Positions 13,099 to 63,650 of a stretch of DNA of 64,000 bases are shown here, piece by piece (position 1 is the stretch's first letter; every line of letters begins with the position of its first letter). Where the stretch lies: assembly GCF_018977255.1 (NCBI RefSeq), contig NW_024704742.1:88972001-89036000 (forward strand), in the 5' to 3' direction. The notes below the pieces were generated by a model. It ran no database searches, had not been told where the DNA came from, and saw only the letters and a program-made list of their open reading frames with translations. This stretch comes from Callorhinchus milii (lineage: Eukaryota). Made by a program: the position numbers and the translations under genes.

Positions 13099-13149
13099 GT
13101 GATCAGTTGTAGTTCTGCAATTCACTGCAAAATAAATGCATATTATCAT

Positions 13150-13445: not shown

Positions 13446-13553
13446 CAGATGTACTGGCACTGCAAATGATAACCACAGTAGACACAGAGTGAAGGCCACT
13501 CTTGTTGATCATAACATTCCTACAAGCCACCCAGAGGACTGTATGAAAGAGAT

Positions 13554-14040
13554 ACAACAACAGCAACAAAATTACATTTATAGAGCGCCTTTCACATGGG
13601 GAGGATGTCCCAAAGTGCTGAACAGTCAGGTGTCAGGGCCTGAGCATGCGGGAGGGGTGGGATAGGGGTGAGGGAAGGCAGAGAGGTAGGAGGGAGACCA
13701 AAGGCACAGTCGAAGAGAAGGGTCTTCAGACCGGTCTTGAAGGAGGCAAGGGAGGAAGCGAGGAGAAGGAACCGTGGGATGGAGTTCCAGAGTGTGGGGG
13801 CAGAGAGGCTGAAAGCCCGTCCACCGATGGTTGGGCGGGAGACATGGAGCAGGTCGGAGCCTGATGAACAGAGAGCGCGGGGCAGGTTGGTAGGGAGTCA
13901 GCAGGTCAGAGAGGTAGGAGGGAGCAAGGCCATGGATGGCCTTAAAGGTGAGGACGAGGATCTTGAACTCAATCCTCTGGGGGATGGGGAGCCGGTGGAT
14001 TCGGGCGAGGGTGGGAGTGATGGGATCACGGAACCTGGTA
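13554..14040 (-). mobile_element. L2 3' end
   Basis: ORF 13626-14117(-): DPITPTLARIHRLPIPQRIEFKILVLTFKAIHGLAPSYLSDLL; (caa)n tail. Confidence 0.92.
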
Positions 14041-14569
14041 GAAAGACTTAGCTGTGGAAGCCCAAGGAAAAAGATAAAGATGTCCTTGGCAAAAAGCCAA
14101 CATTCATAACTTGGCACTTCATAGGAATCAGATCATGAGGTTCTCAGGTTCTCAGTGTTATGTAGAAAACAAGTTTCAGACAGTTTAGGATATAAGGATG
14201 AGTTTACATTAATCAACGGAAGCAAAACCATCAGAGAATCCTGACATAACCCTTACAATTTGTATAGCTTGATCACCCATTCCTTTTGTAATAAAACCTT
14301 GATCCTAATATTCTACGTTTCGAGTTCATCTGTTATTCAGCAGTGAATCTGTAATCTCTTCGAAGGGAAGGGGACGATGTTGACTGTTTACTTTCTCAAT
14401 CCCAGAGTGTAATCCACAATGGAGAATGCTTTTCATTGCAATGTGCTAACATTCTAATTTTCTTTGACTACATTTACCTAAATAAGAGTGAATACCTATA
14501 TCCACCAAGGTCGATATTAGCAGAATATCAAATAGGCTTGAAAGGAGGGAAGTCTTCCCCATTATATAT

Positions 14570-14770
14570 AATAATAATAATAATAATTCTTGCATTTGAT
14601 ATATGCACCTTATCACATTGTCGAGACGTCGAGAGGTCTCAAATCACAGTGCTTCACAGGATTTTACTGGAAAGTTTTGTGACTGTATATTTTCTAGGCA
14701 AACACAACCATCAATTTGTGCAGAGTAGCAATGTTTCACAAATAGCCATGAAGTGAATGATCAATTTTAT
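14570..14770 (-). mobile_element. SINE 3' half
   Basis: (aat)n, cttgcatttgatat, gtgcttcacagg, caatttgtgcagagtagcaatg. Confidence 0.75.
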
Positions 14771-16175
14771 TGACTTTGACGGATGGATAAGTGAGCGGGA
14801 GAGGTATACAGGGTAGAAAAGCAGACAACTCCAGTCCAAGTCAAGGCAAGCCACATTTTCCAAATTAGTTGAAGTTTACAGAAAGAATTATTATTTTTGC
14901 AGGGTTGGATCTCGGATTGGCAAATTATCAACTACATTTGTTTCCCAACGGTGACAAATTTTATTCTGATGTTAGTTGAAAGCGCGCCCGTCCTATACTG
15001 TTTGCAATCAGGCCAAAGCTGCCAAGTCTTATATTGTTCCTGATGTAGAGAATGAAAATCTATTTCAATATGCAAAACTAGGAGCTGGGGAGTCATAAAC
15101 GGCAAATGTCCCTGCAAAGGTGTGAGCGTGTATTTATAATCTGGAGACAAAGCGGCACTGTGTGGGTAGGAAAACACAGTAAAACCAGACAATAATGAAA
15201 AAGATGTGCGATCTTTTTATCATGACAAGGCTAGCAATACATTACAACTTGAGACTGAACCCTGCAGGCTGGACCAACAATCGAGACAATGCAGTATTGT
15301 CTTTCTCTGCCTTTATTCCCATCATTAAGGCCCCATGTCTTAACTCATCATGCTCTGGAAGACGACTTGAAAATCAGAATGGAAATTCAACAAAAGTCAT
15401 TGGGATAAATACCCACGTGTTATTTTATAGTTTATCCCCAGAATAATGTGAATTAAAAATTTACTCCTTCAGTTTTTTAGGATTCAGCAACAGAATCGTT
15501 TACAGATGATTTATAACCCAAAAGCTTTCACCTTCTGAAAACAGCAAAGGCTACTCATTACTTAAAGAAACTGAATCAATGATTCCATGGGTGGGTGGAA
15601 TATCACTGCTGGATAAGCAGCAGAGCTGCAGGCTGTTTTGGTATAACCTTGTGTCCTGCACAGGTCAAAGGTTGGATTTAAAATCAGAGTGTTTGTTCAA
15701 ATGGTGCTGCATCAGTTTTTCTGTTTAGATAGACAAGATTTGTGCACAGGAAAGTGATGAATGTTAACCCTTTCTTATTTCAAGCACGTATAGCCACAAT
15801 CATTGCCTGGTCAAGCACTACATTGAGAGCACAGAGTACAGCACATTCCACTTTCCACAAGAATATACCTAACCCTAATCTCAAAAGACCACCTTCCCGT
15901 TCTGCACAAAGTATGGAGTTTCTGTCTTTCACATCAGCTACTCCATCGTGTCTCTATACTTTAATTATTGGAGTCCATTAAGTGCTCTACAATGTGGATG
16001 ATATAACACCTACTAGAAACAGCAATGAGACCTCATAAATTTATTTCCTGTTGAGTGCTCCGAGATGCCATCCGGCGTGAAGGGCGCTATATAAATGCAA
16101 TTTGTTGTTGTTGTTGTCAAACTAAAACTATAATACAGAAGACATTTTCACTCCTTATTTATCACAAGATGCATA

Positions 16176-16360
16176 AGGCCTGAAATTCCAACTAACCTTA
16201 GTGTGTAAGACCATTTTTTTGAAGATGGTGCAGAACTGTAATTCTGCAGAGTTTGGAAACTTGTGTATTTCTTGGAAAATAACTAGCATCCCGATTAAGA
16301 CTGAATTTAAGAATTTTCCACAAGCCTTCAATTTTATGACAAAATAGTCTTACAAGCTAA
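16176..16360. mobile_element. Palindromic MITE-like element (family of 5433-5656)
   Basis: aggcctgaaattcc...aagatggtgcagaa...ctgaatttaagaattttccaca...aaaatagtcttaca. Confidence 0.6.
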
Positions 16361-16454
16361 CAATAGGCATAATGTTGCACTTGTAGAATATAAAAGCAAG
16401 CAAGCACCAGTGTGCTTGTACAACTGATATATGGAATGTTGCATAATAATAATA

Positions 16455-17040
16455 TAATAATAATCCTTGCATTTGATATAGCACCTTATCAGATCGTTGA
16501 TCACAACAGCGCCCTGCAAACAGTCATGGAGTGAGTGACCAATTTTATTTGGGGGATTTTTGGCTATGAGATTGGGTTAAACAGCTTTGAGCACCCCACC
16601 TTGGGAAGGATGCACAAGCTTTGCCACAAGTTTAATGACAATTCACCAGAAGGATATCTGGGATGCCAGTAATTAACTCTGTTAATACATAATAATAATA
16701 ATATTTTATATAAGGACGTTCACCTCAGGAGGATGTATCAAAGCGCTTCACTGGATTTACTGTAATGTGTAGTGACTGTGTATTTTGTAGGTGAATGTGG
16801 CAGCCAATTTGCATGTAGCAATGTCCTCCAAGCAGCCATGAAGTGAACGACCAATTTTATTTGCACAAATGTTTGCCAGGACACCAGAAGAACCCCTCTC
16901 TGCTTTTCAAATAGTGCCATATGATCTTTAACATCCACCTGAACAGGCAGACTGGACCTCAATTTAATGTCTTATCCAAAGGACAGCACTTCCAACAATG
17001 CAGTCCATCCCAGGAATTGTTAGTGTTAGCCTAGATTAGG
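16455..17040 (-). mobile_element. Cluster of SINE fragments including a Deu-domain SINE (about 16690-17040)
   Basis: ttgccaggacaccagaag...tagtgccatatgatctttaacatccacctgaacaggcagac. Confidence 0.8.
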
Positions 17041-17682: not shown

Positions 17683-17989
17683 TAATCCTTGCATTTGATA
17701 TAGCGCTTTTCACGTCGGGAGGACGTCCCAAAGCTCTTCACAGAACACACTGTAAAGTGAATTGACTGTATATGTGTGGGCGAACGCGGCAGCCAATTGC
17801 GCACAGCAATGTCCCACAAACAGTCGTAGATTGAAAATGACCAATTTATTATTGTTTTTTGTTTTGGAGGTATTATTATTAGGCGTGTGGAGTAAGGAAA
17901 CTTGCCCAAGGTTTCGCCCTGTCTGGAATTGAACTCAGGTCTCTCACTTGCAAAGCGAGTGCTCTAACCACTGAGCTACAGGACTCCAC
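17683..17989 (-). mobile_element. Full-length young tRNA-Ala-headed SINE (short variant)
   Basis: Minus strand: gtggagtcctgTAGCTCAGTGGttagagcactcgctTTGCAAgtgagagacctgaGTTCAATTCC (A box, TGC anticodon loop, B box), then tgtgggacattgctgtgcgcaattggctgcc and an L2-like tail. Confidence 0.92.
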
Positions 17990-21292: not shown

Positions 21293-21317
21293 TGAGGTGC
21301 AAATCCTAATTGTCCAG

Positions 21318-22620
21318 AAGTCACTAATGACATTCTGAACATCTGTGATCAGGGCTCCCTCTGCCTCCTTGTCCTCCTCGACCTCTCTGCTGCCTTCGAC
21401 ACTGTCGACCACTCCATCTTCATACACCACCTCTCCTCTTTACTTAATCTTCACGGATCTGCCCTTGCCTGCATCGAATCCTATCTCTCTCACTGTCTTC
21501 ATTTTGTTGCCTCTAATGGTTTCTCCTCCAGCCCCCACACTGTCACGTTTGGAGTCCCCCAGGGCTCTGTCCTTGGCGCTCGCCTCCTTAATATCTACAT
21601 GCTCCCCCGTGGTGACATCATCCTCAGACATGGGGTCAACTTCCACATGTATGCAGATGACACCCAACTCTATCTTTCTGCCTCCACCCTCAACTCCAGG
21701 ACCACTGCTGTCCTGACAGACTGCCTGTCAGACATCAAGTCCTGGATGAGGGCAAATTTCCTACAGTTGAATGTGAACAAGACTGAGGCCCTCCTGATTG
21801 GCTCACACCAGCGCCTCTGCACCTCAGGCTATGGCAGTATCAACCTCCATGGTTGCACACTTCAACTCACAAAGCCAGTCAGGAACCTAGGTGTCTTAAC
21901 TGTCCACATCCAAGCCATGACTCGCTCTGCCTTCCCTCACCTCCGTAACATTGACTGACTCCGCCACTGCCTCACCCCTCAGGCCTCTGAAACTCTTGTT
22001 CATGTCTTCATCACCTCCAGGCTCGACTGTGCAAATGCCCTGCTTGTCGGCCTTCCCAACTCCTCCCTCCACAGGCTGCAGATAATCCAGAACTCTGCAG
22101 CCCGTGTCCTCTCCCGCACCAAACTCCGTGACCCCATCTCCCCCATTCTCGTCCGACTCCATTGGCTCCCTATCCTTCAGAGGATCCAGTTCAAGATCCT
22201 GGTCCTCACATACAAAGCCCTCCATGGCCTCGCCCCACCCTACCTCTGTGACCTCCTAAGCCCCTACTAACCCACTCGCTCTCTCCGCTCAGCCGGCTCT
22301 GGCCTGCTCCGCGTCCCCCGACCCACACACCCCACCATTGGCGGGAGAGCCTTCAGCCACTCTGCCCCCAACCTCTGGAATTCCATCCCCCAATCACTCT
22401 GCCTCACCCCCTGCTTAGCCTCCTTCAAGTCCCACCTCAAAACCCTCATCTTTGACCATGCCATCAGTCAGTCACCCCCCTTCCCCTCCCCTCCCTTCTC
22501 CCTCCCTAACCCCAGCTCAGGTCTGAAATGCTGTACACTGTCCAGCGCCTTGCGCTGTTGTCCTGATGTGAAAGGCGCTATACAAATCTAATCCTGTTGT
22601 TGTTGTTGTTGTTCTTGTTG
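21318..22620 (+). mobile_element. L2 LINE, 5'-truncated, about 1.3 kb, with RT YADD motif; extra tail copy at about 22627-22677
   Basis: ORF 21599-21958: GVNFHMYADDTQLYLS...CLSDIKSWMRANFLQLNVNKTEAL; full 3' UTR and (gtt)n tail; stops and frameshifts make it non-functional. Confidence 0.95.
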
Positions 22621-24722: not shown

Positions 24723-24822
24723 TTCAGTGTTTGGCTGACCACTGGAATTGATCTGGAACTTGAATGGGCAAACTGTTGAATACCAGTTAGATAATTTAAG
24801 ATAAGATTGCATCTGACCTGCT

Positions 24823-25144
24823 AATAATAACAATAATAATAATCCTTGCATTTGATATAGCACTTTTCAACTCTTCTCGACGTCTCAAAGCACTTCACAG
24901 AATAGACTGTAAAGTGAATTGACTGTATATGTGTGGGCAAAATGCGGCAGCCAATTCCGCACAGCAGTGTCTCACAAACAGTTGTGGATTGAAGTGACCA
25001 ATTTTATTATTGCTTTTTTCTTGAGGGATTATTATCAGGCATGTGGAGTAAGGAAACTTGCCCAAGGTTTCACCCTCCCGGGAGTCGAACCCAGGTCTCT
25101 CGCTTGCAAAGGGGTGCTCTAACCACTGAGCTATAGGACCCCAC
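24823..25144 (-). mobile_element. Full-length tRNA-Ala-headed SINE (short variant)
   Basis: Colinear with 17683-17989 over its whole length. Confidence 0.92.
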
Positions 25145-26049: not shown

Positions 26050-27033
26050 AAACAACAACATCAATATCGGGAGGACTTCCCAAGGTGCTAGACAGTCAGT
26101 GTTTCAGACCCGACCTGGGAGTCGGGTTTGGGGAGAGTGGAGGGCAGGGGGGGAAGAAGGATGATCGAAAGCACAATCGATGAGGAGGGTCTTGAGATGC
26201 ATCTTGAAGGAGGCAAGGGAGGGGACGAGGCAGAAGGACTGCGGGATGGAGTTCCAGTAGGTGGGGGCAGAGTGGCAGAAGGTCCACCTGCTAATGGTGG
26301 GGCAAGCAAGGTGGGGGAACATGAAGCAGGCCAAGCCTGTTGAGCGGAGGGAGGGGGCAGGGTGGTGAGGGGTTAGGAAGTCACAGAGGTAGTGGGGAGC
26401 AAGGCCAGGGAGAGCTTGGAAGGTGAGGACCAGGATCTTGAACTGTATCCTCTGTGTGATAGGAAGCCAGTGGAGTCGGGAGAGGATGGGGGTGATAGGG
26501 TCACAGAGCCTGGTGCAGGAGAGGACACCGGCTGCAAAGTTCTGGATGATCTGCAGCCTATGGAGGGTGGAGTTGGGGAGGCTGACAAGCAGTGAGTTTG
26601 CATAGTCAAGCTTCGATATTATGAATGCGTGTATGAGGGTCTCGGTGGCCTGTGGTTCGAGACAGCGGCAGTGTTGGGTGATGTTGCAAAGGTGGGGGAA
26701 GGCAGAGCGGGTCATGGCATGGATGTGGGGTAGAAAGGATAGTTTTGGGTCAAACAAGACGCCAAGGTAGGGACTGGATTAGTAAGGTGGAGTGTGCAAC
26801 TATGGATGGTGATGCTGTCAGCGCCTGAGGTGTAGAGGCACTGACGGGAGCCAATCAGCTGGGCTTCGGTCTTGTTGACGTTCAACTGTAAAAAGTTAGC
26901 TCTTATCCAGGCTTGATGTCTGGCAGACATTCAGTCAGCACAGCAGTGGTCCTGGAGCCAAGGGTGGAGGCAGAGAGGTACAGTTGGGTGTCATCCGCAT
27001 ACATGTGGAAGTTGACCCAATGTCTGCGGATGA
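26050..27033 (-). mobile_element. L2 3' part, about 1 kb
   Basis: ORF 26104-26757(-), 217 aa: FDPKLSFLPHI...SKLDYANSLL...LHWLPITQRIQFKIL...FKMHLKT. Confidence 0.95.
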
Positions 27034-27472
27034 TAAATTAGGGCTATATTCTCTAGAGTACAGAAGAATTAGGGGATATCGTATTGAAACATATAAGATT
27101 CTTAAAGGGCTGGATAAAGTAGACACTGAGGGACTGTTTCCCCTGGTAGGAGAATCTATAACCAGGGGTCACAGTCTTAAAATTAAGGGTCAGTCTTTTA
27201 GAATAAAGTTGAGGAAACATTTCTTCACTCAGAGCGTAGTGAATTTATGGAATTCACTACCCCAGAAGGCTGTAGATGCTCAGTCCTTGAACATCTTCAA
27301 GGCTGAGACTGATAGATTTTTAAAAAACAGAGGGATTAGGGGATATGGGGATAGGGCAGGTAATTAGAGTTAGGTCTGAAGATCAGCCATGATCTTATCG
27401 AATGGCGAGGCAGGCTCGAGGGGCCAAATGGCCTACTCCTGCTCCTAATTCTTATGTTCTTATGCTCTTATG
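27034..27472 (+). mobile_element. Young CR1 3' end inserted into the L2
   Basis: Open frame LGLYSLEYRRIRGYRIETYKILKGLD...TRGHSLKI...RKHFFTQSVVNLWNSLP; tail (ttcttatg)n; L2 sequence ggatgat|gtcacc is split around it. Confidence 0.95.
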
Positions 27473-31726: not shown

Positions 31727-31819
31727 ATAACAGTAAGGCCCCGTCAGATCATCTCTTTGAGTTAAGCTCCATGACACCATAGAGCTTAACTCAAAGAGAT
31801 CCCTTATCCCTGTTTCGAT

Positions 31820-32277: not shown

Positions 32278-32710
32278 TTCCAGACAGGGCGAAACCTTGG
32301 GCAAGTTTCCTTACTCCACATGCCTAATAATATTCCCTCCAAAACCCAAAACAATAATAAATTGGTCATTTTCAATCTATGACTGTTTGTGGGACATTGC
32401 TGTGCGAAATTGGCTGCCGCGTTCGCGTTCGTACAAATATACAGTCAATTCACTTTACAGTGTGTTCTGTGAAGCGCTTTGGGACGTCCTCCCGACGTGA
32501 AAAGCGCTATATCAAATGCAGGGATTATTATTATTATTATTATATTTATATAGCGCCCTCCATGCCGGACGGCGTCTCAGAGCGCTTCACAGTAAGGAAT
32601 CCTGGGGCCGAGCCAGGGGGAGGGGGAGGAAGATGCCCAAAGGTGCGGTCAAAAAGAAATGTCTTCATAAGGGACCTGAAAGTAGGGGGCGAGGCGAAGG
32701 GAGGCACCGA
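32278..32710. mobile_element. Young SINE (+, 32278-32545) tail-to-tail with an L2 3' end (-, 32540-32710)
   Basis: cagacagggcgaaaccttgggcaagtttcc...(tta)n, then tatttatatagcgccctccatgccggacggcgtctcagagcg. Confidence 0.9.
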
Positions 32711-38585: not shown

Positions 38586-39745
38586 TAGAATCATAGAATC
38601 AGCTATCCAATTCAATCCCACTCGCCCGCTCACTCCTCATAGCCCTGCAAACTTGTCTTCCCCAAATAATTATAATAATAATATAATAACAATAATCCTT
38701 GCATTTGATATAGCGCTGTTCATGTCTTCTCGATGCCTCAAAGCGCTTCACAGAATATACTGTAAAGTGAATTGACCGTATATTTGTGAGCGAACGCGGC
38801 AGCCAATTGTGCACAGCAATGTCCCACAAACAGTCATGGATTGAAAATGACCAATTTATTATTATTTTTGTTTTGGAGGGATTATTATCAGGCGTGTGGA
38901 GTAAGGAAACTTGCCCAAGGTTTCGCCCTGCCTGGAATTGAACTCAGATGTCTCACTTGCAAGGTGAGTGCTCTAACCACTGAGCTACAGGACTCCATTA
39001 TCTGCTTCTCTCTTAAAAGTTGTTATAGAATTGGCTTCCACCACCCTTTCAGGCAATGCATTCCAGACCCAAACAACTTGCTGTGTGAAAAAAATTCTCC
39101 TCATCTCCCCTCTGTTCCTTTTAAGAACTATTTTAAATCAGTGTCCTTGGGTTACTGACCCACGCGCCAATGGAAATAGTTTCCCCTTGTTCACCCTATC
39201 GAATCCCCTCATAATTTTGAAAACATCTATTAATTCTCCTTTTAACCTCCTCTGCTCCAAGGAGAATAATCCTGGCTTCTCTAGCCTCTCCTGATAACTG
39301 AAGTCCCCCATTCCTGGTACCATCCTGGTAAATCTCCTTTGCATCCTCTCCAATGCCTTGACAACCTTCCTAAAATGTGGTGCCCAGAACTGAACACAGT
39401 CTCTAGCTGAGGCCTAACCAGTGTCTTATAAAGGTTCATCATAACTTTCTGACTTTTGTATTCTATGCCCCTATTTATAAAGCCTAGTATCCCGTATATA
39501 TTTTTTAACAGCTTTATCTACCTGTCCTGCCACCTTCAAAGATTTACTTATATGAACCCCCAGGTCTCTCTGTTCCTTCATCCCCTTTAAGATTCTACCC
39601 TCTATCTTATATTGCCTCTCCTCGTTCTTACTCCAAAATGCATCGCTTCGTATTTCTCCACATTAAACTTCATCTGCCACGTGACTGCCTATTTTACCAG
39701 TCTATGTCCTCTTGCAGTCTGCTACTCACTGTTTACTACTTTTCC
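38586..39745 (-). mobile_element. CR1 3' part (about 0.85 kb) interrupted by a SINE
   Basis: ORF 39138-39353(-): ERMQRRFTRMVPGMGDFSYQERLEKPGLFSLEQRRLKGELIDVFKIM; tail tagaatcatagaat. Confidence 0.92.
38670..38997 (-). mobile_element. Full-length tRNA-Ala-headed SINE (short variant) inserted in CR1
   Basis: Colinear with 17683-17989; splits CR1 aataattat|...|ttatctg (compare the empty site at about 21070-21080). Confidence 0.92.
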
Positions 39746-44775: not shown

Positions 44776-45314
44776 GTGAAGGCCAACTCGCATTTTTACC
44801 CTGTCCAAAGTTGTCCTGTCCAATACAATGCAGAGCAATTTAACGCTCCTCTCGTCGGACGGATGTCCCAAAGTGCACTCAAAGCAGTAGCTTGGTAATC
44901 AAGTTGGAAATGAGAGCTGAGGTCCCTGTGAAGGAGACAGATGATAGAGACTGCAGTGAAAGAGGTACGTTTCAAAAGATTCCTTGAAAAAGGTGGCTGA
45001 ACACAGTCACTCCACTTCACAATAAATTCTCTGAAGTTTTGAGATGCCTCAATACATGATATCTAGTGCAAGGATTATTACTATTATAACAATAATAATC
45101 ATCCTGGCATATTGCACAAAAATAACATAATTCAAATAAAATCTGCTGCGATTCTCAGCTTTCAGGGTCTACATTAGATAAAACAAATTCATCTTCAAAC
45201 AACTAGGGAAAACGCCTTTTGTTAATTTAGTAGGGGCTGGCTATTCCCATGAGCTATGTTCCATTTTCCCAGTTTCCTTCAGCCTGTCATGATAAGATAT
45301 CAGATACAGTTGAT

Positions 45315-46130
45315 CCTTCTATCCCTCTCTGAACCCCTCCAATCAGGTTTCCGCGCTGCCCACAGCACGAAAACAGCCCGGGTCAAAGTCACCAATGACA
45401 TTCTGAACATCTGTGACCAAGGCTCTCTCTGCTTCTTTGTCCTCTTCGACCTCTCTGCTGCCTTTGACACTGTCATCCTCCGCAACATTGCTCCGCCATT
45501 ATTTCATACCGCAGGCCACAGAGACCGTCATTCACGCATTCATAACATCCAGTCTCGACTACGCAAACTCGCTGCTTGTTGGTCTCCACAACTCCTCCCT
45601 CCATAGGCTGCAGATCATCCAGAACTCTGCAGCTCATGTCCTCTCCCGCACCAGGCTCCAAGCCTTATCACCCCCACCCTCGCTCAACTCCACTGGCTTC
45701 CCATCATGCAGAGGATACAGTTCAAGATCCTGGTCTTCACTTTCAAAGCCCTCCATGGCCTTATTCCCCATACCCATCTCTGTGACTTCCTAACCCCCTA
45801 CCAACTTCCCTGCTCCCTCCGCTCAGTGGCTCCAGCCTCTTTTATGTCCCCCACCTCACCTGCCCCACCTTTGGTGGGCGGGCCTTCAGTCATCACCCTC
45901 TGAAACTCAATGCAACAGTCCCTCCGCCTCGTCCCCTCCCTTGCCTCCTTCAAGACCCATCTCAAGACCCTCTTCTTCGCCTGTACCTTTGGTCGCCCTT
46001 CTTCCACCCTGCTCCCACCCTCCTCGATCCCAACTGCCAACTCGGGTCCGAAACAATGATTGGTCAGCGCCTTGGGACGTCCTCCCGACGTGAAAGGCGC
46101 TATACAAATGTCATTTTGTTTATTTGTTTG
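45315..46130 (+). mobile_element. L2 with internal deletion of most of the RT core
   Basis: ORF 45256-45606: PLQSGFRAAHSTKTA...DLSAAFDTV joined directly to ILRNIA; intact 3' tail gggacgtcctcccgacgtgaaaggcgctat. Confidence 0.92.
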
Positions 46131-46816
46131 ATGCTGCCTAAGTTTCACATACAATAAGCTAAATGTCAGTCCTGCTCTTTACAATGTAATGTTATTATTT
46201 ATCTAATAATTCAACACAAAGAAACTGATTGTACTTTGTGAACATTATTTTAGTGTCTTTATATAATAATAATAAAAAGGATAATGTTTTCTTTTAGTAT
46301 AAACAGATAGTTGGGAGGACATCTCAAGGCACCACACAAGCTTTCACTCAAAGTATAATGATTATATGTTTTGCAGGCAAAAGACTCATAGGTTTGTTAG
46401 AGTTTCAGATTGTAGTAATTGTAAGTAATTGTAAAGAAGGTACTTATTTATGTGGAAAGTGATGTCAACTGTGCCAGCCGTTGAATTAGCATGTGAGAAA
46501 GGAAGGAAAATAGCTAAGATCAGGTACATAGGGATCATAAAATCATAAAAGTTATAGAGCAGATGGAAGCCATTTAGACCTTTAAGGCTGAACTAGTACT
46601 ATTTTCTCTACTGGAGCTATCTACTCTAATCCCAATTCCCAATTATTTTCTTATAGAATCCAACTATTTTAAGACATGAACTCATGTCCCAACCCCAGTG
46701 AACGGACAGCGGCTGCTGCTGCTAATAGATTAGTCACTCCCAAACCATGATAAGCTCTTGTGTCACAAACTCAACATAACCAATGATGTCACAGGACATT
46801 ACCACATTGAAATAGA

Positions 46817-48640
46817 CAACAACAAGGATTACATTTGTATAGCGCCTTTCATGTTGGGAGGACGTCCCAAGGCGCTGGACAGAGTACAGCATTTCAGACC
46901 CGAGCTGGGGTTGGGGGGAGAAGGGAGGGGAGGGGAAGGGGGGTGGCCGATGACATGGTTGAAGAGGAGGATCTTGAGGCAGTACTTGAAGGAGGCTAAG
47001 GAGAGGGTGAGGCGGAGTGACTGGGGGATGGAATTCCAGAGGTTGGGGGCAGAGTGGCTGAAGGGTCTCCCGCCAATAGTGGGCCGGGTGGGTTGGGAGA
47101 CATGGAACAGGCCAGAGCCAGCTAAGCGGTGGGATTGTGCGGGTTGGTAGGGGTTAGGAGGTCGCAGAGGTAGGGTGGGGTGAGGCCATGGAGGGCTTTG
47201 TATGTGAGGAGCAGGATCGTGAACTGGATCCTCTGAAGGATAGGGAGCCAATGGAGTCAGGTGAGAGTAGGGGAGATGGGGTCATGGAGTTTGGTGCGGG
47301 AGAGGACACGGGCTGCAGAGTTCTGGATTATCTGCAGCCTGTGGAGGGAGGAGTTGGGAAGTCCGACAAGCAGGGCATTTGCATAGTCGAGCCTGGAGGT
47401 GATGAAGGCATGAACAAGAGTTTGAGCGGCCTGAGGGGTGAGGTAGTGGCAGAGTCGGTCGACGTTACGGAGGTGAGGGAAGGCAGAGCGGGTCATGGCT
47501 TGAATGTGGGGAGAAAAGACAGTTGAGTGTTGAACAAGACACCGAGGTTACTGACTGGCTTGGTTAGTTGCAGTGTGCAACCATGGAGGTTGATGTTGCC
47601 AGAGCCTGAGGTGCTGAGGCGCTGGCGTGAGCCAATCAGGAGGGCCTCACTCTTGTTCACATTCAACTGTAGGAAATTTGCCTCATCCAGGACTTAATGT
47701 CTGACATGCTGCGTGGAAGCCGGATTGGAGGGCTTCATGAGGGAATGGCAAAAGAGGAACGGAGCTGGGATGATACGACTCTTTCCAGGACCTTGGAGAG
47801 GAATGGAAGATTAGAGATGGGACAGTAGCTGGAGAGGAGGGGTGGGTCCAGGGAAGGTTTTTTCAAGATTGGGGTGATAACGGCTGTTTTTAGGGGAGTG
47901 GGAATTGAACCAGTGGACAGGGAGAGGTTGATGACATTGGAAAGGAGAGGGGCCAGAAGGTGGAGCTGGGAGATGAGGAGAGAGGTTGGGATAGGGATTG
48001 AGGGAGCAGGTGGTGGGTTTGAGTTTGCGGACAGTCGTGGTGAGTGAGGAGGGAGAGATAGGGTCGAAAGACTATAGCGAGGAATGGGTGGGGGTGGGTC
48101 ATGAGGGAGAGATGATTTGGGGGTGGCTGTGGATGGGGCTGAGGTGGCTGAACATATCCCCTTGAGTTTAGATTTGAGGAAGTCCAGCATCTCCTCACAG
48201 TTGGAGTTTAAGGAGAGGATTGGCGAGGTATGGGAAGGTGGATGGAGGAGACGGTTTGTGGTGGAAAAGAGAAGCCTGGGGTTGTTCTTTGCCTCCAAGA
48301 TAGCCTTGGAGTAGAAGGAGGATTTGGCGGAAGCAAAAGCGCAGTGATAGGTCTTGGTGTGGTGAAGCCAAATCTGCCGATGGACCGTTAGTTTGGATTT
48401 GGTCCAGGCGCCTTTGACAGCTCGCACTTGTGCCTTGAGGGAACGGAGATGGCTGGTGTACCAGGGGATTCACGGGAGTATGAGGTATTTGGGAGGTGAG
48501 GAGGGCAAGGGAGTCCAGAATGGAGGAGAGGGAGTGTTGACTGTCATCAAACGTTGGAGAAACAAAAGGCAGAAAGGTGCCTGTTTACAGGATGGAATAA
48601 CAAAGGGGAGGGTGGTGATTGGAGCTGAGTCTGACAGCAA
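46817..48640 (-). mobile_element. Longest L2 copy (about 1.8 kb), RT core deleted at about 47708
   Basis: ORF 47735-48427(-): KTAVITPILKKPSLDP..YCPISNLPFLSKVLERVV; jumps from QSGF to SDIKSW; 3' ORFs 47257-47496 and 46829-47251; (caa)n tail. Confidence 0.95.
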
Positions 48641-49250: not shown

Positions 49251-52200
49251 TTTATCACAATTTGTGACACCATGCTTAGAAGTATCCGAACCACAATACT
49301 GAGGGCTCCACACATGTATAGACATTGCCCGTTAGTCTGGAATGGAAATGCATACTCTCTACCCGGATAGATGTACACTGCTAACCTAATCCAAGAAAGT
49401 ATTAGGCGTATGTGGCAAAAACTGGTGGTAACAAAAATTGTTGTGACCATAGCTAAACTATCTAAGCTACACCAATGACACATAAGGTCACAAGCATATG
49501 TCAAGAGCCATTGTAAGGCCAAGTACAGAGGTTCCAGGACTCCCATTTGTCCCAGTGCTCAACATTTGTCAGTAGTGCATTCATAAGTGGCTGGTACAGT
49601 ACACTTTAGTATTATTCAGAACCTATTTCAAGTTACAATTTTATGTAAATTAAAGTTTTGAACTGTGGCAAACTGTTTCCTAAAAGACCTTATCTAACCT
49701 CATTTATCTACCAGAATATGGACAGCCGCAGTCCAGTCAGCATTATCAGCGGATATTGATAGAATAATTGAGTTACAGGCTAGGCAAAGCACGGGAATGC
49801 ATCAAATTACTCTTAATTTCATTCCACACAGGAATTTTACATCTCAATCTATTTGACTATCACTTTTAGTTAGGCTTTGAGACAAAATTGTATTACAGTA
49901 TGCTGCAGTATAATTCAATAACATGCCCAAAGGGAAATGTCAAAGCTGCAATTGTAAGAGATAAGGCAGCTTTAAAACAGATCAGGGGTCTATCCTGCCT
50001 TACATTTCTAAACAAACCCACCCGTATAAACGTTAACACTTTCAAGACAGTAACCCCTATTGGCTTCAGTGATCGGTGCTGGGGTATTTGTGCTGTTTCT
50101 CTTTCTTAATCTGGTAATATTTCTATAAAGGGCCCACAATGGTTTACCTGCCTAATGACTACAACATTAGGCATGCTGTTGTAGTTTGCTGTAATGACTA
50201 CCTTCTGGAGTTTGAAAGATAAATACATCAGTGGCGCCCCTGTCACACCAAGCATCTTCTCTGGGAATAATACATCCAAATCCCTCTTCGCAAAACATTT
50301 CTCAGCTCAATTTGAGATTGCAGATTTACTATAAAGAGCGCAGTGGTCCAGTGTGGCACCAGGCACTGCTCAAGTCCAGTCACACAGCAATGCCAGGGTT
50401 GATTTTACGGTGTTTCTTATCGGGTGAAATAATAATCCTTGCATTTGATATGAAATGCAAGGATTACTATTATTAACAAATTGATAAAGGAATTAAATGA
50501 CTTACTAATACAATTGTAACTACTGCAACTACTCCGAATTCCTGCCTCCTCAGTGCAGAAATGAATTTGAGTTAGATATGCCTCTGTGTTGAAACAATGT
50601 CAAAATCTGCCATACACACAATATTTCTGAGACTGCAAGAACTATTCTGAATTTTCAACTTAGCAGGCACAGAGAGACTTCTTTCTCCTGAGAAAAGGGG
50701 TTGAACTGCAGTTAAGAGTGGAGTGCAGTCTAGGAGCTAATACAAGAGAGTTGGTTCAATTTTTAGTTGGTACATCTGTCCAGAATACCCATCACACAGG
50801 GAGGACAGCTTGACCATAAACACAAGGGTACATTGAGGCTTGGATGTGAACTAAGCACCTAACAGGAAAGGGAATAGGTGTCTTTATGTTTTGCATTTGA
50901 AAAACCCTTTTCTTTCACTGAGACTTTGATGACCACTCTCTTTTCTTGAATAGTTCCACCCTCGGATTGCCAAGCCAAGGCAGACCTCGCTGTGTGCAAA
51001 ACAACTGCTGCTTTGCCCAGAGGAACAAAAAGCAAAATATCACAAGTCAGTGCCTCCTTGCACCAAGCAAGCCACAACTCTTCAGGAATCTATTCAGTGT
51101 GTGCCTGTCATGTCTGTGTGTTCACATTTACAATTCTATCCCCTTACCCTGATATTCTCCTATTGTCCTTTTTTTTATGTACACATCCACCTTCAGGGAT
51201 GGACTGGCTCCAAAGCAATTCCAAAAGACCTTATGTTCTTGCACAGATGCAAAGGACTGGATGTTGCTGCACACAGAGTGCGGGGGGAAACAATAATCCG
51301 AGTCATAAAGAATGTGCAATAGTTTAACGCTCTGAGTTTTATTGTTGAATGTAATAGCTGGACTGTACTGACGGCATTTTAATGGACGGTTGCTCTAAGA
51401 AAGCATCTCCATTTCTTCCTGAACCATATTTTTTGTGATTCACGCTGCGCATTTTATCTTTTTAATCAATCCCTCGACTGCAACACGATTGACAATAAAA
51501 TAACCGCACGCACATCGCCTGCTTCAGCTGCATACTGTCAAAATGTGAATTTATGTTGCTGGAAACCTACAGTTTTTTTATTGTTAGACAGAAGAAACAT
51601 AAATATCTTGTGCCTGCGCAATTTTAAATAATATTATCTCTGTGTTTGATTCATTCTGAGGAAGAACAATTGGGTTAAGCAACGATTCTCTCAGTTTTAA
51701 AGGGCATGTGTTTTGTGAAGCAGCCTTCAGAGGTCAGCAACATGAAATCTCTCATGCTCTTGGGCTTAAAAGCCTTGTCTAACAGTTTGGATTGTCCAGA
51801 TTTTTGTAAAACAGTATTAAACTTAGTCATTTGATAGCCGAATTTCTGCACTCCTTTTTCAGTACTTCAGACATCAGTTTAACACAGGGCATTTTTTAAG
51901 GAATTGTCACTGGTGGGGACTGAACTCCAAGAAGCACTTTTATCCCACATCCAGAAACATTAATAACCAGTTACTACAGATGAAGCAACGCTTCAGGTAT
52001 TTGATAAGGACTCGCTACAGGTACGATAGTATCACTGCTTAAGCGGTGACCGCTTGGCAAATGCTGACAAAATCGCCAGTACCTTTATTATTATTATGGA
52101 AGGGTAATTTACTGGTGGGGAATTTTGAAATTATTGCTGGGGAATTCCTAGGGGCCGATGGGGATTTTCCCCACTACTATATATGCTATGCCCTGGTTTA

Positions 52201-53765: not shown

Positions 53766-55391
53766 GTGATAATTAGCACATCAAAAATCACAATTTTCAC
53801 CCTATGTATCATTTACCGTTTGATTACGTGATTTACGTGATTGTAAAGAAACAACTGTCTGTCTCGTAATCCTAGATATCTCTCCCCTTGCCATGAATTT
53901 TAGTTACTTATATAAAGCTCATCTGGGCAAACAGAAAACGATAAATGGAGCTGCCAATAAAATGCGTAATCTTATTTTGTCACTCGCTATTTCTCTTTAA
54001 GGTGACTGCTGACACTGAGTTACAATTTCAATACTGACTTTCGGTTGCATATAAAAAAGAGGTGAATTCAGCTCAGAGTTATACAATCTCCACGAAAGTT
54101 AAATAAAGTGCAAAAGTTTCACCCTATCAATCCTTCTGCTGACTGACCAAGGTGACATTTCATTAGCACATTTTGTCAATGAATAAATTCTACAGTGAGC
54201 TCAAAAGGGAAGGTGGAAAACATCTAGTCCTTTTTCATTAGCTCCATCCAAACTTGAACCACTGGAGATTACACACAAGAAGCACATGAGCCGGAAGAAG
54301 AGCCAGCCTGTCTATAAACTACATTAATCATTCATTCCCTCAAGAGTGCCTTAAGTCACTGCCACGTCTCTGCTCTGGCCAAAAATGGCTATTCAATTTT
54401 GAGCTGCATGACAGATACATTTCAAGGAAAATCACAGACATAACGACTGCTGCCATGGCTGATAAAGTCCTCATTCATCAATTAAGAAGTTTCCAGTAAG
54501 CTGAGATGGATATGGCAGAATAAGGCCGGCTTCATGTTACCACACAGGCGGTGGGTTTATTTTGCTGGAGGATAGCAGATTGCTCCTAGGTTCACCTTGA
54601 GCAATTGGGAAGCAGAACATGGAAATTGTACAGAGCCTCAGGAAGTTAGACGAGAGAAAGATAAATGTCATTAAGTGAGAATATGAGAAGCTTTTGCAAT
54701 TCCCCGGAGGTGAAGGGAAGACAAAGAGAGAAAAAATGACAAGTGATACTTTACAGCTCGCAATGTGTTGCTCACTTATTCAGGTGAAGAGGTTGAGTGT
54801 CGTAGAGAAGATTTAAAAAAAAGCTTTTATCCAGCCTGTACGAAGGCTGTGTTTGCCCAAGAGCTGATATTAATCTAATCGTATTACAAAGTGCTTAGCA
54901 GTCTTTGATCCATTAAATAATTAGCGTGTATTCCTTATGTGCATGCTTAATTCGCATGGTGTTGTGTACGTTTGTCACTTAACATTAGGCTGTGTAATAA
55001 TGTTGCAACTTTACAATTGATCATTCAAGGGGCAAATAAAGAAAGCATTCTTTCTGTATGACAATGTGGCATGTAGTTATTTTGATTCAGAGAATGTGAA
55101 TGACATTCTCGATGACATGACTTTAGTGGGGATATTTCTCATGTTCCTATGTGGTTATTAGGATCACTTTGAAACATGTTACTCACTACTGACTTCCATC
55201 CACTTTATTTAAATCATTGCTGATATGATAGGAGCGATGTGAGAAAGGTGATTTATATGTCACCAGAATTTTCCAGTTAACAGAGTTCATTATATTTCAC
55301 ACAGGGGTAAAAATTCTGTTCAGCATCACAACGCATCAACTTTGGCGATATCAGCCATTAAGTGGAATTCCCATTATACAGTACAACTTAA

Positions 55392-56070
55392 CAACATCAA
55401 CAGTAACAAAAATTACATTTATAGAGCGCCTTTCACATTGGGAGGACATCCCAAGGCGAAGGACAGTCAGGGGTCAGGACCCGAGCATGGGGAGGGGTGG
55501 GGTAGGGGTGAGGGAAGGCAGAGAGGTGGGAGGGTGACCAAAGGCACAATTGAAGAGAAGGGTCTTGAGACTGGCCTTGAAGGAGGGAAGGGAGGAAGCG
55601 AGGCGAAGGGACTGTGGGATGGAATTGAAGAGTGTGGGGACAGAGAGGCTGAAAGCTCAGCCACCGATGGTAGGGCAGGTCAGGCGGGAGACATGGAGAA
55701 GACCGGAGCCCGCTGAACGGAGGGAGCGGGCAGGTTAGTAGGGAGTCAGCAGTTCAGAGAGGTAGCAGCGGGCAAGGCCATGGATGGCCTTGAAAGTGAG
55801 GATAAGGATCTTGAATTCGATCCTCTGAGGGATGGGGAGCCAGTGGAGTCGGGCGAGGGTGGGAGTGATGGGGCCACTTTTGGATGATCTGCAGCTTGTG
55901 AAGGGAAGAGTTGGGAAGGCCGATGAGGAGGGAATTTCCATAATCTAGCCTGATGTGACGAATGCGTGGGTAAAGGTTTCGGCAGCCTGAGGGGTGAGGC
56001 AATGGCGGAGTCTGGCAATGTTACAGAGGTGCTGGTAGGCAGTGCCTGTCATGGCGAGGATGTGGGGGAG
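55392..56070 (-). mobile_element. L2 3' end
   Basis: ORF 55735-55941(-): PITPTLARLHWLPIPQRIEFKILILTFKAIHGLA; close to 13554-14040. Confidence 0.92.
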
Positions 56071-58008
56071 AATCGATTTACACTAATTTACATAAATTTA
56101 TGCTAATAAAGTGCCTTTCACGAAGGGAGGATATTTCAAATCAGTTGCAGGACCTCTAAGAGCGCTTAAATTATAGTTTGATGTTGTACTTAACAGTGAA
56201 CTTTAACCAGTTATGTTTTCAAACTTTTTAAAAATCATTTCTTGCGCTGGGAATAAATATTTATTGTATTTCACACAGGAGTAAAAGTTCGGTTCAGCAT
56301 CACAACACATCACCTTTGGCACTATCAGCCACTGAATGAAATTCCCATTATACAGTACAATTTAAAGAAATGGGCTGTTGTGTAAGCAAAGGTGCCAGCA
56401 TTCTTCAATTAATAGTGGGCAGCAATGAAAATAGTTCAGCGTGCTAGCTTACATATCAGTTCAAATAGAGGGTTTGTTCTGCTTACAGTAGGTATGAGCA
56501 AGCACCGCTTCAGCATGTTGCAGCAGACAGAACTTTGTTGTAGCCTTAATAATTTGGGGTGACTCACGAATTGTATTGTTAAAAATCAAATGTGATGGAA
56601 CACAGTTTGTGGGGCCCTGAGCAAATTTCAATTCAAATCCTTTTCATTCTGAAAGTATAATGTTAAAGGTCACTGCCAGTGCTTATGAACAAAGATGCTC
56701 ACTCTTTATTTGTGTTGGCCTGCAAGGCAGCCTGTCAATCACAGATGACAACATGCCACAATGATACTTTCCCCGCCTGTGTCTTGCACACACGATGCTG
56801 TCAAGGATGGGAATGATGGAGAAGCAGAGTAAGACTCCGCTAGAAACAGATTTTTGAGGGAGATATGATTATTGTTATTCATTTCTGTGCCATTTATTAA
56901 GTAGGATGTTCAGACACCCATTTCCAAATTCTGTGAAAAGTAACAAATTCTAATAGCGGCAATGTAAAGAATAAAGCTTCCCTGCACTCCTCTGCCCAAT
57001 CTGCCCCCCAAAATATCATTCATAAAATACACAATCTCTCCACTTTACAGTAAATCCTGTGAGGCCCCCCAAGACATCCTCCTGACGTGAAAGATGGTAC
57101 TTGCCATATCAAGTACCAGGATTATTACTATAATTAGAATATGTTACTTCAAGGCTCTTGTCAGAGAGGTAGGGAATTGCCAGGGCATGAATGGATTTGA
57201 AGACGAGTGTGAGGATCTTGAAATCGATCTGTTTGGCGATAAGACTCATTTACTGTGAAAGCATTTAGGATATTTCAACATTGTAGACACCACAAAATTG
57301 CAAGTTTTATTCATTCGTACTACTGTTCTTTGGTGTTATTTGGGCTATACAAAATATATATATATATTAGTGGTTATAAAAAAAGGAAATCAATTGCATG
57401 AAACAGCTCAGAAAGGCAAGAAATGCAACATTTTAAAGGTATTTAAAAATACCGTATCCTGCGAAAAGCAATGAATTCCCAGATAATGTGGTCAATGGCT
57501 TAATTAGAGGTACTGGAAATGGCATTCCACTTATTTCAGTGTCATGAAGTTTATCTGTTGGAAGGCCTGTTTTCTAACTGCTGCCATCCATTTACCACTG
57601 AGAATTGATAGGTCTCCTTCCTTTGATTGTCTGCAAATCATATTCCATGTGAGTCCAAGTGCTGTTTAACTTTATGCTGTCTCTAACCTGGCTTCAAGGA
57701 GATCCGCTCTGTCAGCCATGAGCTCAATATGGGGAGCAATCTGTGCACATGCCCACCTTTACTACTACGTGAATTATTTATACATATTTGAGTTTACTCA
57801 AGAAACAATATCAACCTTGGGAGATGTGATGAACATTTTCAAAATCAAACATAGGAGCATTAGACAATTCTTGTTTTTCCACATTCAACAAAAAGATATA
57901 AGTATCTTTTGATAAAACATTTCCAATGTTCTTTTGTCCTTTTATAGCTTTAACATTTTAATTTGTCCAATTATTTTTCTAATTTTTCTTTGCATTGGTA
58001 TATATAAG

Positions 58009-61104: not shown

Positions 61105-61303
61105 ACGATCTTGCCAACCTGTGCCTAATACTCTTTGGAATTAGGCAAGCAGGGTGTATCCCTCCAGGAAGAGATAGCACACTTGCACCCCAAAATAAGA
61201 ATTTCCATGGTATAGTTGGCATACATGGAATTCTCAGTCTGAATTGTATACTCTTTAAGCATGGGTGTCTTTAGGCATCAGACACCTGGTTGACCAAAAA
61301 AAG
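61105..61303 (+). mobile_element. Family X 3' fragment
   Basis: cttgccaacctgtgcctaatactc..gaattagg...tcagacacctggttgaccaaaaaaa. Confidence 0.65.
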
Positions 61304-61369: not shown

Positions 61370-61968
61370 AAGATAGCCAGGTATTAATGGAGATCAAGCT
61401 TTTGGCAAATAAGACCTGTGTTCTTCTTCATGGATCTGATTTCCTGGGGATACAGCAGAGAGGCTTCCTCACGCCCATTTGCAAAATCTAGGATCAAGGT
61501 GAAGTGGAATTGTGGCAAAAAAGGGAAGCGGCTGCAGAGAGGGAGGGCTCTGGCCTACACTGACCTTTCTCTGAGCACCCTGGAGGCAGAGTCAGCTTCA
61601 CAGCGGGCATGTCTCTTGCCAAGGCTCCTCACTTGAGGAACTGGATTAAGCAGCTGGTGCTGAGTAAGCCTGGTACACAGCATGGGACTTGGACCTTGAG
61701 AACATCAAGTTGGTTGGCACAGCACAAACTGTCTGGTAAAGGTCCTCCCACCATCCTGAAAACAGATGTCCACCAGATAGCTGATGAGGAAACTCTGAGA
61801 CATGGGCCAGCAGTACGAGTTTGTGAACACATTGTATATCCAGTGCTTAGAATCCACCTTGATTGGTTTGCAGAGAGGTAAGCAACTACTCAGTGGAAGG
61901 GATATGTGTCTGAGCTGTGGTAAGAAGACGGTGGCAATGCTCTCACACATTTAATGCTGAGCTGTGTT
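61370..61968 (+). mobile_element. Possible very old L1/Tx1-clade ORF2 C-terminal remnant
   Basis: GC-richer stretch with an EGGL motif at about 61540 and C-L-S-C-G...(one frameshift)...H-L-M-L-S-C at 61907-61965, resembling the CCHC knuckle. Confidence 0.3.
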
Positions 61969-62232
61969 TCCCACCAGGAAGGTCACAAGGAATTCCTAGT
62001 ACTTACCCGTGAGGGTTCAAACCGGTACTTGCTGAATGTCAAATGACCATGGAGTCATTATCCTCCTTGGGTGAGAGAGGGGGTCAGCTCCTGTTAACCC
62101 TGCAAAGCCAAAGTCCTTAGAGGTAGGGTGGACCTAGCTGCACAATCAGCAAACCCTAACCCTAATTTGTAGCTTTCCAGACAACGATATCAATGGCAAG
62201 CTATTTGGTTTTAGTTGATTAGACTTCAGAGG

Positions 62233-62476
62233 ACAAAACACAAAATACTGCAGATGCTGGAATCTGAAACAAAAGCAGAGAGAGCTGGGAAAACTCAGCA
62301 GGTCAGGCAGCATCTATGGAGAAAGGAAAGTGAGTCAACATTTCAGGTCCACGACCCTTCGCCAGTTCTGACGAAAGGTCGTGGACCCGAAACGTTGACT
62401 CACTTTCCTTTCTCCATAGATGCTGCCTGACCTGCTGAGTGTTCCCAGCTCTCTTTGTTTTTGTTTTGGACTCCAG
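62233..62476. mobile_element. Penelope-like element terminal repeat (pLTR) as an inverted pair; 109-bp arms
   Basis: Arms 62257-62365 and 62368-62476 differ at about 10 positions; flanked by GACTTCAGAGG (62222-62232) and GACTCCAGAGG (62469-62479); the hammerhead core is typical of Penelope pLTRs. Confidence 0.75.
62364..62400 (+). ncRNA. Minimal type I hammerhead ribozyme motif (possibly degenerate)
   Basis: AGUU-CUGACGA-A-AGGUC(GUG)GACCC-GAAA-C-GUU-GACU: both core boxes, stem II GGUC/GACC, palindromic ACGU helix III, 4-bp helix I AGUU/GACU. Confidence 0.65.
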
Positions 62477-63409
62477 AGGTATCGCAACCCACACGCTAAG
62501 GTCCCCAAGCCCTGACTCTTGCCAAGCTGTGTCTAATACTCTCCAGAATTAGAAAAGCATTCTCTTTCCAGGGAGAGAATATGCATTTCATTCTAATAAA
62601 TAGCTATAATTTCCATGTATAGGTGGGATGCACTGGAACTCAGTTTGGTTTGATCATGGTGATTGGTTTCTGCATGTGTCAGACACCAAGCTGATGAAAA
62701 AAAAAGTAACATTTAGCTGGCTAAATATAAGTATGATCCATGCTAAAATGGAATTCATTTATTCATGTAACAATCTAAACATGTTTTAAATGATAATATC
62801 TGATATTGTCATTTACTTTACATAGAACTTTCTTAGTTTATGACTTTTTGTATGACTTAAATAATTGGATTCAGTCACTTACGGCAAATCAGAATTCCAC
62901 TGCTGTTATATGACTCACTCACTGCAGGCTGATATTGTGTGGCTCATATTTTCCCTTCTCAGATGTCCACCTCCAGTCAGTGGGATGTGCCCTTTATTCT
63001 GTGATTCATCAAAGGAAATAATTACATTCATTCTCCCTGAATCTTTGCTAAGGAAACCAGTTTAAGCTTCCTTTTCTGGTCATGTCATCATTTCTCACGA
63101 CACATCATTATTTGTCTGGAGCAGTTATATCCTTTGATGTGAAATATGAATTTTAATTCTCTACTTGGCTTTTATTTATTTTTAAAGTTATTTATATAAT
63201 AATAAAACTACAATAATCCTTTATTTTGGTATAGCCCTCAAAGTCAAGATTGTCTCAAAACGCCTCGCAATGTTTCTGTCAAGTGTAGTGACTGTATTTT
63301 GTAAGCTAAAAGAAGTATTTTCTTGATTAGAGAAAGTAATGATGGCAGCATAGCCAGCCTCACTCATTGGCAGGACTTAGAAGGGCAAACTATTAATAGG
63401 ATCAGTGAT

Positions 63410-63650
63410 TCTTCCCACTCAGTTCTCGATTACCCTGCAAACCAAAGCCTTGATGAGCAGAATGGTCATAGGTAGACAATCTGTGGAAACACTTGGCAGA
63501 TAATGCTTTCATTGGCAAGCTATGTGGTTTTGGCTGGTCAGACGCCAGCAATACCCCAATGCACACACTGGAGTTCCCCAAGCCTTGGTTCTTACCAACC
63601 TGCACCTAATACTCCAGAATTAGGTAAACAGGGTGCGTCCTTCCAAGTAT
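63410..63650 (+). mobile_element. Family X central fragment
   Basis: cccactca...taccctgcaaaccaaagcc...tggcaagctatgtggttttggctgg...cctaatactccagaattaggtaa. Confidence 0.7.

Follow-up and report, generated by a model that had tools for sequence, protein, structure and literature searches.

A head-to-head pair of decayed minimal hammerheads in Callorhinchus milii DNA, read as the inert stub of a Penelope-like element

The palindromic insert that begins at position 62233 of the 64,000-nt stretch of Callorhinchus milii DNA analysed here (the window) is very probably an inert stub of a Penelope-like retroelement (PLE). The fuller reading, that of an old, inert and extremely 5'-truncated insertion of an endonuclease-bearing (EN+) PLE whose palindrome was built during one insertion, is favoured with moderate confidence. 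If the insert is indeed an inert PLE stub, two-ended priming is the likely origin of its two halves. Three features of an EN+ PLE insertion unit are present: a head-to-head inverted 5'-truncated copy, a one-sided tail of 32-35 nt, and a target duplication whose single-copy empty site is preserved in paralogs. The window DNA is repeat-rich, of animal type, and has about 41% GC; repeats of a similar kind are known from cartilaginous fishes. The parts of the locus are as follows.

62089-62232, + strand: left part of the host repeat, here called family X, which is older and of high copy (72% to 4889-5016)
62219-62232 (14-bp reading; 11-bp core 62222-62232), + strand: left copy of the target-site duplication, which agrees with the right copy at 12/14 and 10/11 positions; three window paralogs have the site once
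62233-62267 (end at 62264-62267 depending on duplication length), - strand: one-sided "tail" of 32-35 nt, found on the left arm only; family contigs also start at 62233-62236 in all four runs
62268-62365, - strand: left arm, an element end piece that reads in RNA sense along the - strand; it differs from the right arm at 7 of 98 positions, and its summed depth is very high in each of the four runs
62333-62365, - strand: damaged minimal hammerhead motif (CUGGCGA, G·U at 10.1-11.1, GAAAU, helix I half broken)
62363-62370, no strand: centre, a CAG-TT-CTG micro-palindrome whose TT are native letters of the + (tail-less) arm
62364-62400, + strand: candidate minimal type I hammerhead (helix I of 4 bp, CUGACGA, an extra A, A·C at 10.1-11.1, helix II of 4 bp, GAAAC-GUU), with a predicted cut after 62396 if active
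62368-62465 (end at 62465-62468), + strand: right arm, a tail-less element end piece, delimited by inverted-repeat and base-by-base comparison
62466-62479 (11-bp core 62469-62479), + strand: right copy of the target-site duplication, its first 11 nt resembling the tail start
62480-62647, + strand: right part of the family X host repeat (78% to 63562-63623, 76% to 12913-12962, 72% to 61109-61241)

As first delimited, the inverted arms (62257-62365 and 62368-62476) are 109 nt each, 91% complementary with 10 mismatches, and separated by 2 nt. The segment 62223-62479 folds at -186.3 kcal/mol, whereas shuffled sequences average -71.7 (z -23; none of 200 shuffles did as well), and the first-pass annotation had described the arms and their spacing correctly. 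It had also reported an 11-bp repeat at the edges. This repeat is present at 62222-62232 and 62469-62479 (10/11 identical), and equally good 11-bp matches at similar spacing occur at 3.3e-5 of window positions, but its length is better read differently. Base-by-base comparison showed that at 62467 and 62471 the right copy agrees with the target and not with the mirrored element; the duplication, at least 11 bp (10/11), is for this reason best read, and more simply, as one of 13-14 bp (11/13 and 12/14). The outer 8-11 bp of the 109-nt right arm fall inside the duplication and would be target DNA resembling the continuation of the element. This leaves element-derived arms of 98-101 bp, mismatched at 7 of 98 positions, and an unpaired left piece that measures 32-35 nt and not the 24 bp reported at first. 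The first 11 nt of the right copy match the tail start at 8/11 with either duplication copy and at 9/11 when either copy is counted; the window background for such a likeness is 1.8e-3 (8/11) and 1.6e-4 (9/11) per site. All six reading frames of the arm are interrupted by stops, and no second copy of the arm was found in the window by blastn or a 22-mer scan. Two of the 7 differences in 98 between the arms are at CpG sites, and the duplication copies differ by 1-2; by this count of differences the insertion is old.

The insert splits a family X repeat, as had been claimed. Three window paralogs (at about 4.9-5.0 kb, 12.8-13.0 kb and 63.4-63.6 kb) contain one copy of the site and no insert, passing directly from left-flank-like into right-flank-like sequence. 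The same empty form, likewise of paralogs, was seen in contigs from sequencing runs, of which 171 in run X1 and 54 in run X8 depart at 62229 and then read like the right flank. The letters AGG are common to both duplication copies, and since the three paralogs have CAG or CAA there, both copies are taken to be one duplicated target. Family X itself has at least five window occurrences (4746-5028, 12544-13081, 61109-61241, 62089-62686 and 63337-63645) of 70-79% identity, all on one strand, and each of the four runs shows it at high copy. At the insertion point, family X natively has a sequence similar to the start of the element's tail, so that other family X copies may have been hit at the same place.

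Each arm carries hammerhead boxes. In the + arm these are CUGACGA (62368-62374), GAAAC (62389-62393) and GUU (62394-62396), with a 14-nt spacer between the boxes and GAAAC-GUU without a loop 3, in agreement with a CUGANGA/GAAA pattern of 7-17 nt followed by N-U-H. Helix I (AGUU/GACU) is formed by A-U, G-C, U-A and U·G pairs, and an extra nucleotide, A62375, precedes helix II. The palindromic 15.2-16.2 pair is C-G in this arm and U·G in the - arm; the majority letter supports it in 66-84% of family depth. The + arm boxes are thus as the first-pass annotation gave them, but the motif is not fully intact: the conserved 10.1/11.1 pair is an A·C mismatch. In the - arm it is G·U, and neither arm has G10.1-C11.1. 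The damage claimed for the - arm is also there: the boxes read CUGGCGA and GAAAU, outside the pattern, and two of four helix I pairs are broken. Each canonical 10.1/11.1 letter occurs in one arm and in the family, and the motifs are for this reason filed as decayed copies, not intact ribozymes. The majority letters of the family mend the left-arm core, G making up 66-84% of the depth at 62340 and 70-79% of that at 62345 across the four runs, which restores GAAAC and C11.1, while loose ends behind 62360 read ATCAG, which is CUGAUGA in RNA sense. Taken together the family majority letters give a canonical hammerhead core by consensus, in which the boxes, the additional base ahead of helix II and the palindromic pair at 15.2-16.2 are all retained.

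The Rfam hammerhead models, a search that the first-pass annotation had proposed, gave no match at E up to 10, either in 61500-63200 or in 62355-62420. The box pattern alone has six window matches against 5.4 expected, and being no rarer than chance it becomes significant only with the helices and the family evidence. When the window was scanned with relaxed settings, nine sites had a helix II of at least 4 bp, of which only the one in the + arm has a 4-bp helix I as well. No second hammerhead copy on the same strand was found in the window, and the tandem direct-repeat feature of non-LTR retrozymes is thereby absent. The centre of the palindrome was considered as a ribozyme cut site and rejected, as it lies about 29 nt upstream of 62396.

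Relatives of the arm were sought in contigs of 4 of the 24 listed sequencing runs, aligned to 61788-62387 at 80% likeness: X1 and X8 from organism A, X7 from organism B and X9 from organism C. Summed depth at 62308-62327 reached 0.72, 7.9, 0.24 and 4.5 million in the four runs, against 5.8, 54, 0 and 37 in the first bin, a measure that is not a copy number. Judged from these contigs, this shows the arm to be a very abundant repeat in all three organisms. One X1 contig spans 61934-62257 without a difference; the left junction is therefore present in run X1, from which the window itself may derive. The contigs of organisms B and C yielded no long, clean segment of the flank.

Behind 62365 the loose ends start with AACTG in all four runs, the reverse complement of CAGTT in the + arm. 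Because the family continues in this way, the central TT belongs to the native sequence of the tail-less arm. A shared, purine-rich continuation of 30 letters beyond the centre was recovered in 4 of the 24 loose-end rows listed (of 1631), from runs X7, X8, X9 and partly X1, while other rows listed decay to AT-rich letters with an agreement of 0.40-0.48 past AACTG. On the strength of this shared continuation, the arm is read as the end of a longer element. The continuation has one window match, with two mismatches, within a different repeat at 13879. Read in RNA sense, what natively precedes helix I (62363-62367 plus the loose-end continuation) is a pyrimidine-rich sequence with a CAG end, similar to a splice acceptor. 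Opposite-strand joints that connect 62358-62365 on one side with 62274, 62305, 62322 or 62325 on the other make up 5 of the 15 listed (of 169), and a 30-letter spacer at the centre was seen in one contig among the 12 rows listed (of 43). Depth past the centre was 309, 4748, 844 and 2659 in the four runs, or 0.58, 1.27, 6.05 and 0.91% of the preceding bin, values lowered in part by this stretch's own mutations near the centre, which reduce mapping there. Copies with the same centre do exist, such as X9 record 32, which is gapless across the centre with 21 differences in 127. Up to 26, 42, 3 and 42 contigs overran a stretch end in the four runs.

The published systems nearest to this locus are discussed here as far as the accessible parts of the cited papers describe them. 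PLE units often have an adjacent inverted 5'-truncated copy and a one-sided tail of 30-40 nt (Craig et al. 2021, PMC8557442), and a rotifer PLE copy has an inverted pLTR, a 31-bp tail and a 9-10-bp duplication, its junction palindromes being ascribed to self-priming (Arkhipova et al. 2013, PMC3846280). The insert resembles these EN+ units in its head-to-head copy, its 32-35-nt extension (30-40 in the published units, 31 in Pen2a_Av), its duplication and its junction palindrome. It differs from them in that both copies are only about 100 bp, stop at the same hammerhead point and enclose no ORF; its duplication is 11-14 bp, compared with 8-10 bp in the rotifer examples. Like the minimal hammerheads of metazoan PLE pLTRs (Cervera and De la Peña 2014, PMC4209133), the motif is of type I, lacks loop 3, and has a palindromic 15.2-16.2 pair, a 4-bp helix I and an extra base; unlike them, it has A·C (+ arm) or G·U (- arm) in place of G10.1-C11.1. 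Helix II is 4-5 bp here and 7-8 bp in the Schistosoma families, and opposite-strand pairs, known from the same paper at distances of 100-700 bp, are here only 2 nt apart. In the Poseidon element PAc of Anolis carolinensis (Frangieh et al. 2024, PMC11167929) a hammerhead likewise lies about 90-130 nt upstream of two tail-defining end points, and each target strand is able to prime. Non-LTR retrozymes (Li, Clavereau and Pollet 2026, bioRxiv 10.64898/2026.07.22.740005) are similar in being non-coding, carrying a type I hammerhead and deriving from PLE terminal repeats. They are, however, direct tandem repeats with at least two hammerheads on the same strand, while the insert is an inverted pair without a cis dimer; lacking a second same-strand copy in the window, it was rejected as a retrozyme by the tandem definition.

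Other searches touched on the identity of the arm. None of the 36 window ORFs of at least 110 aa matched the GIY-YIG family, and two RVT_1 matches lie far from the arm. Scans of prokaryotic and viral collections with the arm gave chance matches or none. They included 25 loci (4 genome contigs and 21 metagenome contigs), of which 24 match only an 18-23-nt pattern and one (L016) matches 38 nt at 87%; as short matches these were treated as chance and not as relatives. Three Rfam miRNA precursors, mir-641, MIR1507 and MIR533, scored 54.4 of 100, 40.6 of 73 and 39.9 of 80 bits, below their gathering thresholds, and were set aside as generic hairpin matches. The literature searched held no report of such palindromes in cartilaginous fishes, nor of either of two 21-nt arm motifs, and the supplement of PMC8557442 contains neither shark names nor arm motifs; the family may already be named in Repbase or Dfam. 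The first-pass annotation had proposed a coding-free PLE-type terminal hairpin with minimal hammerheads, and the head-to-head pair with its own target duplication bears this out. Of the two origins that it had offered, the extreme truncation product is favoured, as junctions vary and little of the depth crosses the centre in three of the four runs.

The mechanism that we propose for the head-to-head junction is two-ended priming. Staggered nicks 11-14 bp apart would leave two 3' ends in the target. The top-strand end would prime reverse transcription at the distal start site, giving the left arm with its tail, and the bottom-strand end would anneal to the RNA over the initial 11 nt of the tail and prime at the proximal site, giving the tail-less right arm. 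Both cDNAs would halt just past the hammerhead core, and their 3' ends would be joined via the 3-bp CAG/CTG complementarity at the junction of helix I and the CUGA box. The hammerhead would be a passenger from the terminal repeat of the parent, functionless here. In LINE-1 twin priming both target strands prime, the second via an internal RNA site, and the cDNAs join by microhomology. The proposed scheme is alike in its two primed strands and its microhomology joining; in LINE-1, however, the two cDNAs come from different parts of one RNA, whereas here they would come from the same part, which would need two RNAs or two terminal repeats. Our literature search returned no work that combines Penelope with twin priming. 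With purified Poseidon protein, each target strand is both nicked and extended, and the PLE tail corresponds to the distance between two start sites of reverse transcription (PMC11167929). In the accessible text of that paper, the start site is not homologous to the cut DNA and AT-rich targets are preferred; because a likeness of 8-9/11 is seen here at one junction, this counts against two-ended priming with tail pairing.

The mirror half of the same inert stub might instead have been made by self-priming, which is possible but unlikely. A cDNA or antisense template ending in CAG-AA-CTG would fold back and be copied, and the right-end tail would be lost on joining the target via the 8-9/11 likeness. 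Self-priming is the published reading of PLE junction palindromes (Discussion of PMC3846280, in the part available), the 3-bp stem and 2-nt loop at the centre suit a snap-back, and the joints with one arm reaching 62358-62365 and a shorter partner, among those listed, fit a same-strand fold-back. Two signs speak for two-ended priming instead, and both are weak. The centre letters come from the tail-less arm, which makes a snap-back of the tail-bearing cDNA improbable, since it would leave AA on the top strand; copied from the tail-less arm, the longer arm would have had no template unless the tail was trimmed afterwards. A 2-nt spacer can also flip later by template switching between the arms, and the centre-letter argument is weakened by this. 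The arms further differ at two sites, 62292 and 62357, whose alternative letters are both common in the family (C at 62292 in 49-86% of depth; at 62357 the loose-end consensus has C for X7 but T for X9), which favours two templates; two dimorphic sites can also be due to chance.

Two-ended priming could also act on a much shorter template. Here the RNA would be a non-autonomous PLE stub of 100-135 nt with its 5' end at hammerhead helix I, about 29 nt upstream of the cut site, set by a start site, by a splice acceptor as in D. virilis or by a stop at the ribozyme fold; retrotransposed in huge numbers, it would yield both solo stubs and hairpins. We regard this as a tentative and rather doubtful extension. 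A stop at helix I is hinted at by the 5 of 15 listed joints that end one arm at 62358-62365, by several listed joint rows with only 3-9 letters before the core and by the drop of loose-end agreement to 0.40-0.48 past AACTG, hints that are partly built into the test, as the query was without native upstream sequence and contigs over-count unique junctions. In D. virilis, the Penelope intron ends at the 5' end of helix I (PMC4209133, in the part available).

The second origin offered by the first-pass annotation, a non-autonomous palindromic unit of about 235 bp transcribed and reinserted whole by PLE proteins, is disfavoured and very unlikely. Same-centre copies do recur, with the depth past the centre, the contigs that overrun a stretch end and the gapless X9 contig given above all in its favour. 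However, only 0.6-1.3% of the preceding-bin depth crosses the centre in three runs (0.6, 1.3 and 0.9%) and 6% (6.1%) in the fourth. Variation of palindrome centres between loci had been named in advance as speaking against such a unit, and other partner points, with other junction geometries, are present among the joints listed. The micro-palindrome would be a ready joining point, so that recurrence needs no common parent; a fully paired RNA would hide the start sites of the reverse transcriptase, and the one-sided tail marks insertion from a normal template.

A DNA-transposon MITE, or another fold-back element with an incidental hammerhead-like core, is highly improbable. The near-perfect palindrome, its short length, high copy and own target duplication are those of a MITE, no ORF in the window is tied to the arm, and the Rfam hammerhead models were unmatched. 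The symmetric ends and fixed interior of a MITE are missing, however: the ends are unequal by the 32-35-nt one-sided extension, junctions are variable and a native continuation runs past the centre, the arm occurring with a shared upstream continuation and variable partners. What defines minimal hammerheads, namely the core boxes, an additional base ahead of helix II and palindromic 15.2-16.2 positions, is moreover preserved in the family majority letters.

Folding was computed for the motif and its surroundings. Isolated, the segment 62362-62402 pairs helices I and II with a probability of 0.3-0.45. Adding 33 nt of the left arm upstream lowers that of helix I to about 1e-24, and in the full insert, where it is about 1e-27, forcing helices I and II costs 40.8 kcal/mol. 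Two co-folded copies of 62362-62402 with helices II and a shared helix III, helix I being left out, reach -10.1 kcal/mol, compared with -20.3 for the free dimer. On either strand the complement is transcribed ahead of the ribozyme, and the two cores are on opposite strands; for these reasons there would be neither a kinetic window nor a tandem dimer in cis, and the hammerhead is predicted to be sequestered in the context of the insert. Run X8 may be RNA. A>G differences were found at 14-17 places in each of the four runs, in contigs that carry neither strand nor level and are hence mute on editing. A functional RNA switch, as first suggested, would have a read-through transcript pass back and forth between cleaving itself and serving ADAR or Dicer as dsRNA. 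It is unsupported and the least credible reading: the insert, if transcribed, would fold to about 100 bp of dsRNA and the isolated motif does pair its helices, but the folding cost, the complement always made first, the want of a sense-strand dimer partner in the window and the mutations in both cores all stand against it, as do, in the accessible parts of the two papers, single minimal hammerheads that did not cleave with dimers cleaving little (PMC4209133) and 8 of 9 Xenopus dimers left uncleaved (bioRxiv 10.64898/2026.07.22.740005).

As old debris of a known insertion type inside another repeat, this single locus matters little. The pattern, including opposite-strand pairs of minimal hammerheads, is already published, and the locus is an ordinary example of it, as far as the available text of the three papers shows (PMC8557442, PMC3846280, PMC4209133). 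Its use is as one data point on how PLEs form head-to-head junctions and tails, for which self-priming has been proposed (PMC3846280) and the extension of both strands shown in vitro (PMC11167929). If the stop at helix I were family-wide, counting in a host assembly would make the junction question testable. If the short-template reading were true, thousands of junctions would provide a natural read-out of two-ended priming against self-priming in PLEs. If hairpins are as common as contig depth suggests, they may contribute much potential dsRNA and give rise to many false miRNA or MITE annotations in these genomes.

Several other repeats were found in the window. A decayed reverse transcriptase is present at 21296-21955 on the + strand (Pfam RVT_1, E 6.9e-19), with a weak match at 45253-45603; its motifs resemble those of an L2/CR1-type LINE more than those of Penelope. 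The dispersed repeat that bears RVT_1 has many 5'-truncated copies, with related pieces at 21617-22613, 26066-27034, 45253-47709, 55390-56072 and 13554-14039. An abundant family of about 320 bp, SINE-like in size and of 84-88% identity, occurs at 10702-11017, 17683-17989, 24822-25144, 32278-32550 and 38664-38997 and in about 20 shorter pieces. At 32467-32592, two SINE/LINE-like 3' ends lie tail to tail around an (ATT)n run, forming a 72% inverted repeat. Four further small palindromes (3552-3660, 31751-31800, 50428-50471 and 62787-62815) are 76-91% self-complementary, unrelated to the arm and without hammerhead boxes. Upstream of the insert, 61828-62000 contains two more repeated segments whose summed depths are 7,000-17,000 in three of the runs; they probably belong to the body of an old repeat, be it the same or a different one, and contigs skip 39-49 bases there between 61874-61884 and 61924-61930.
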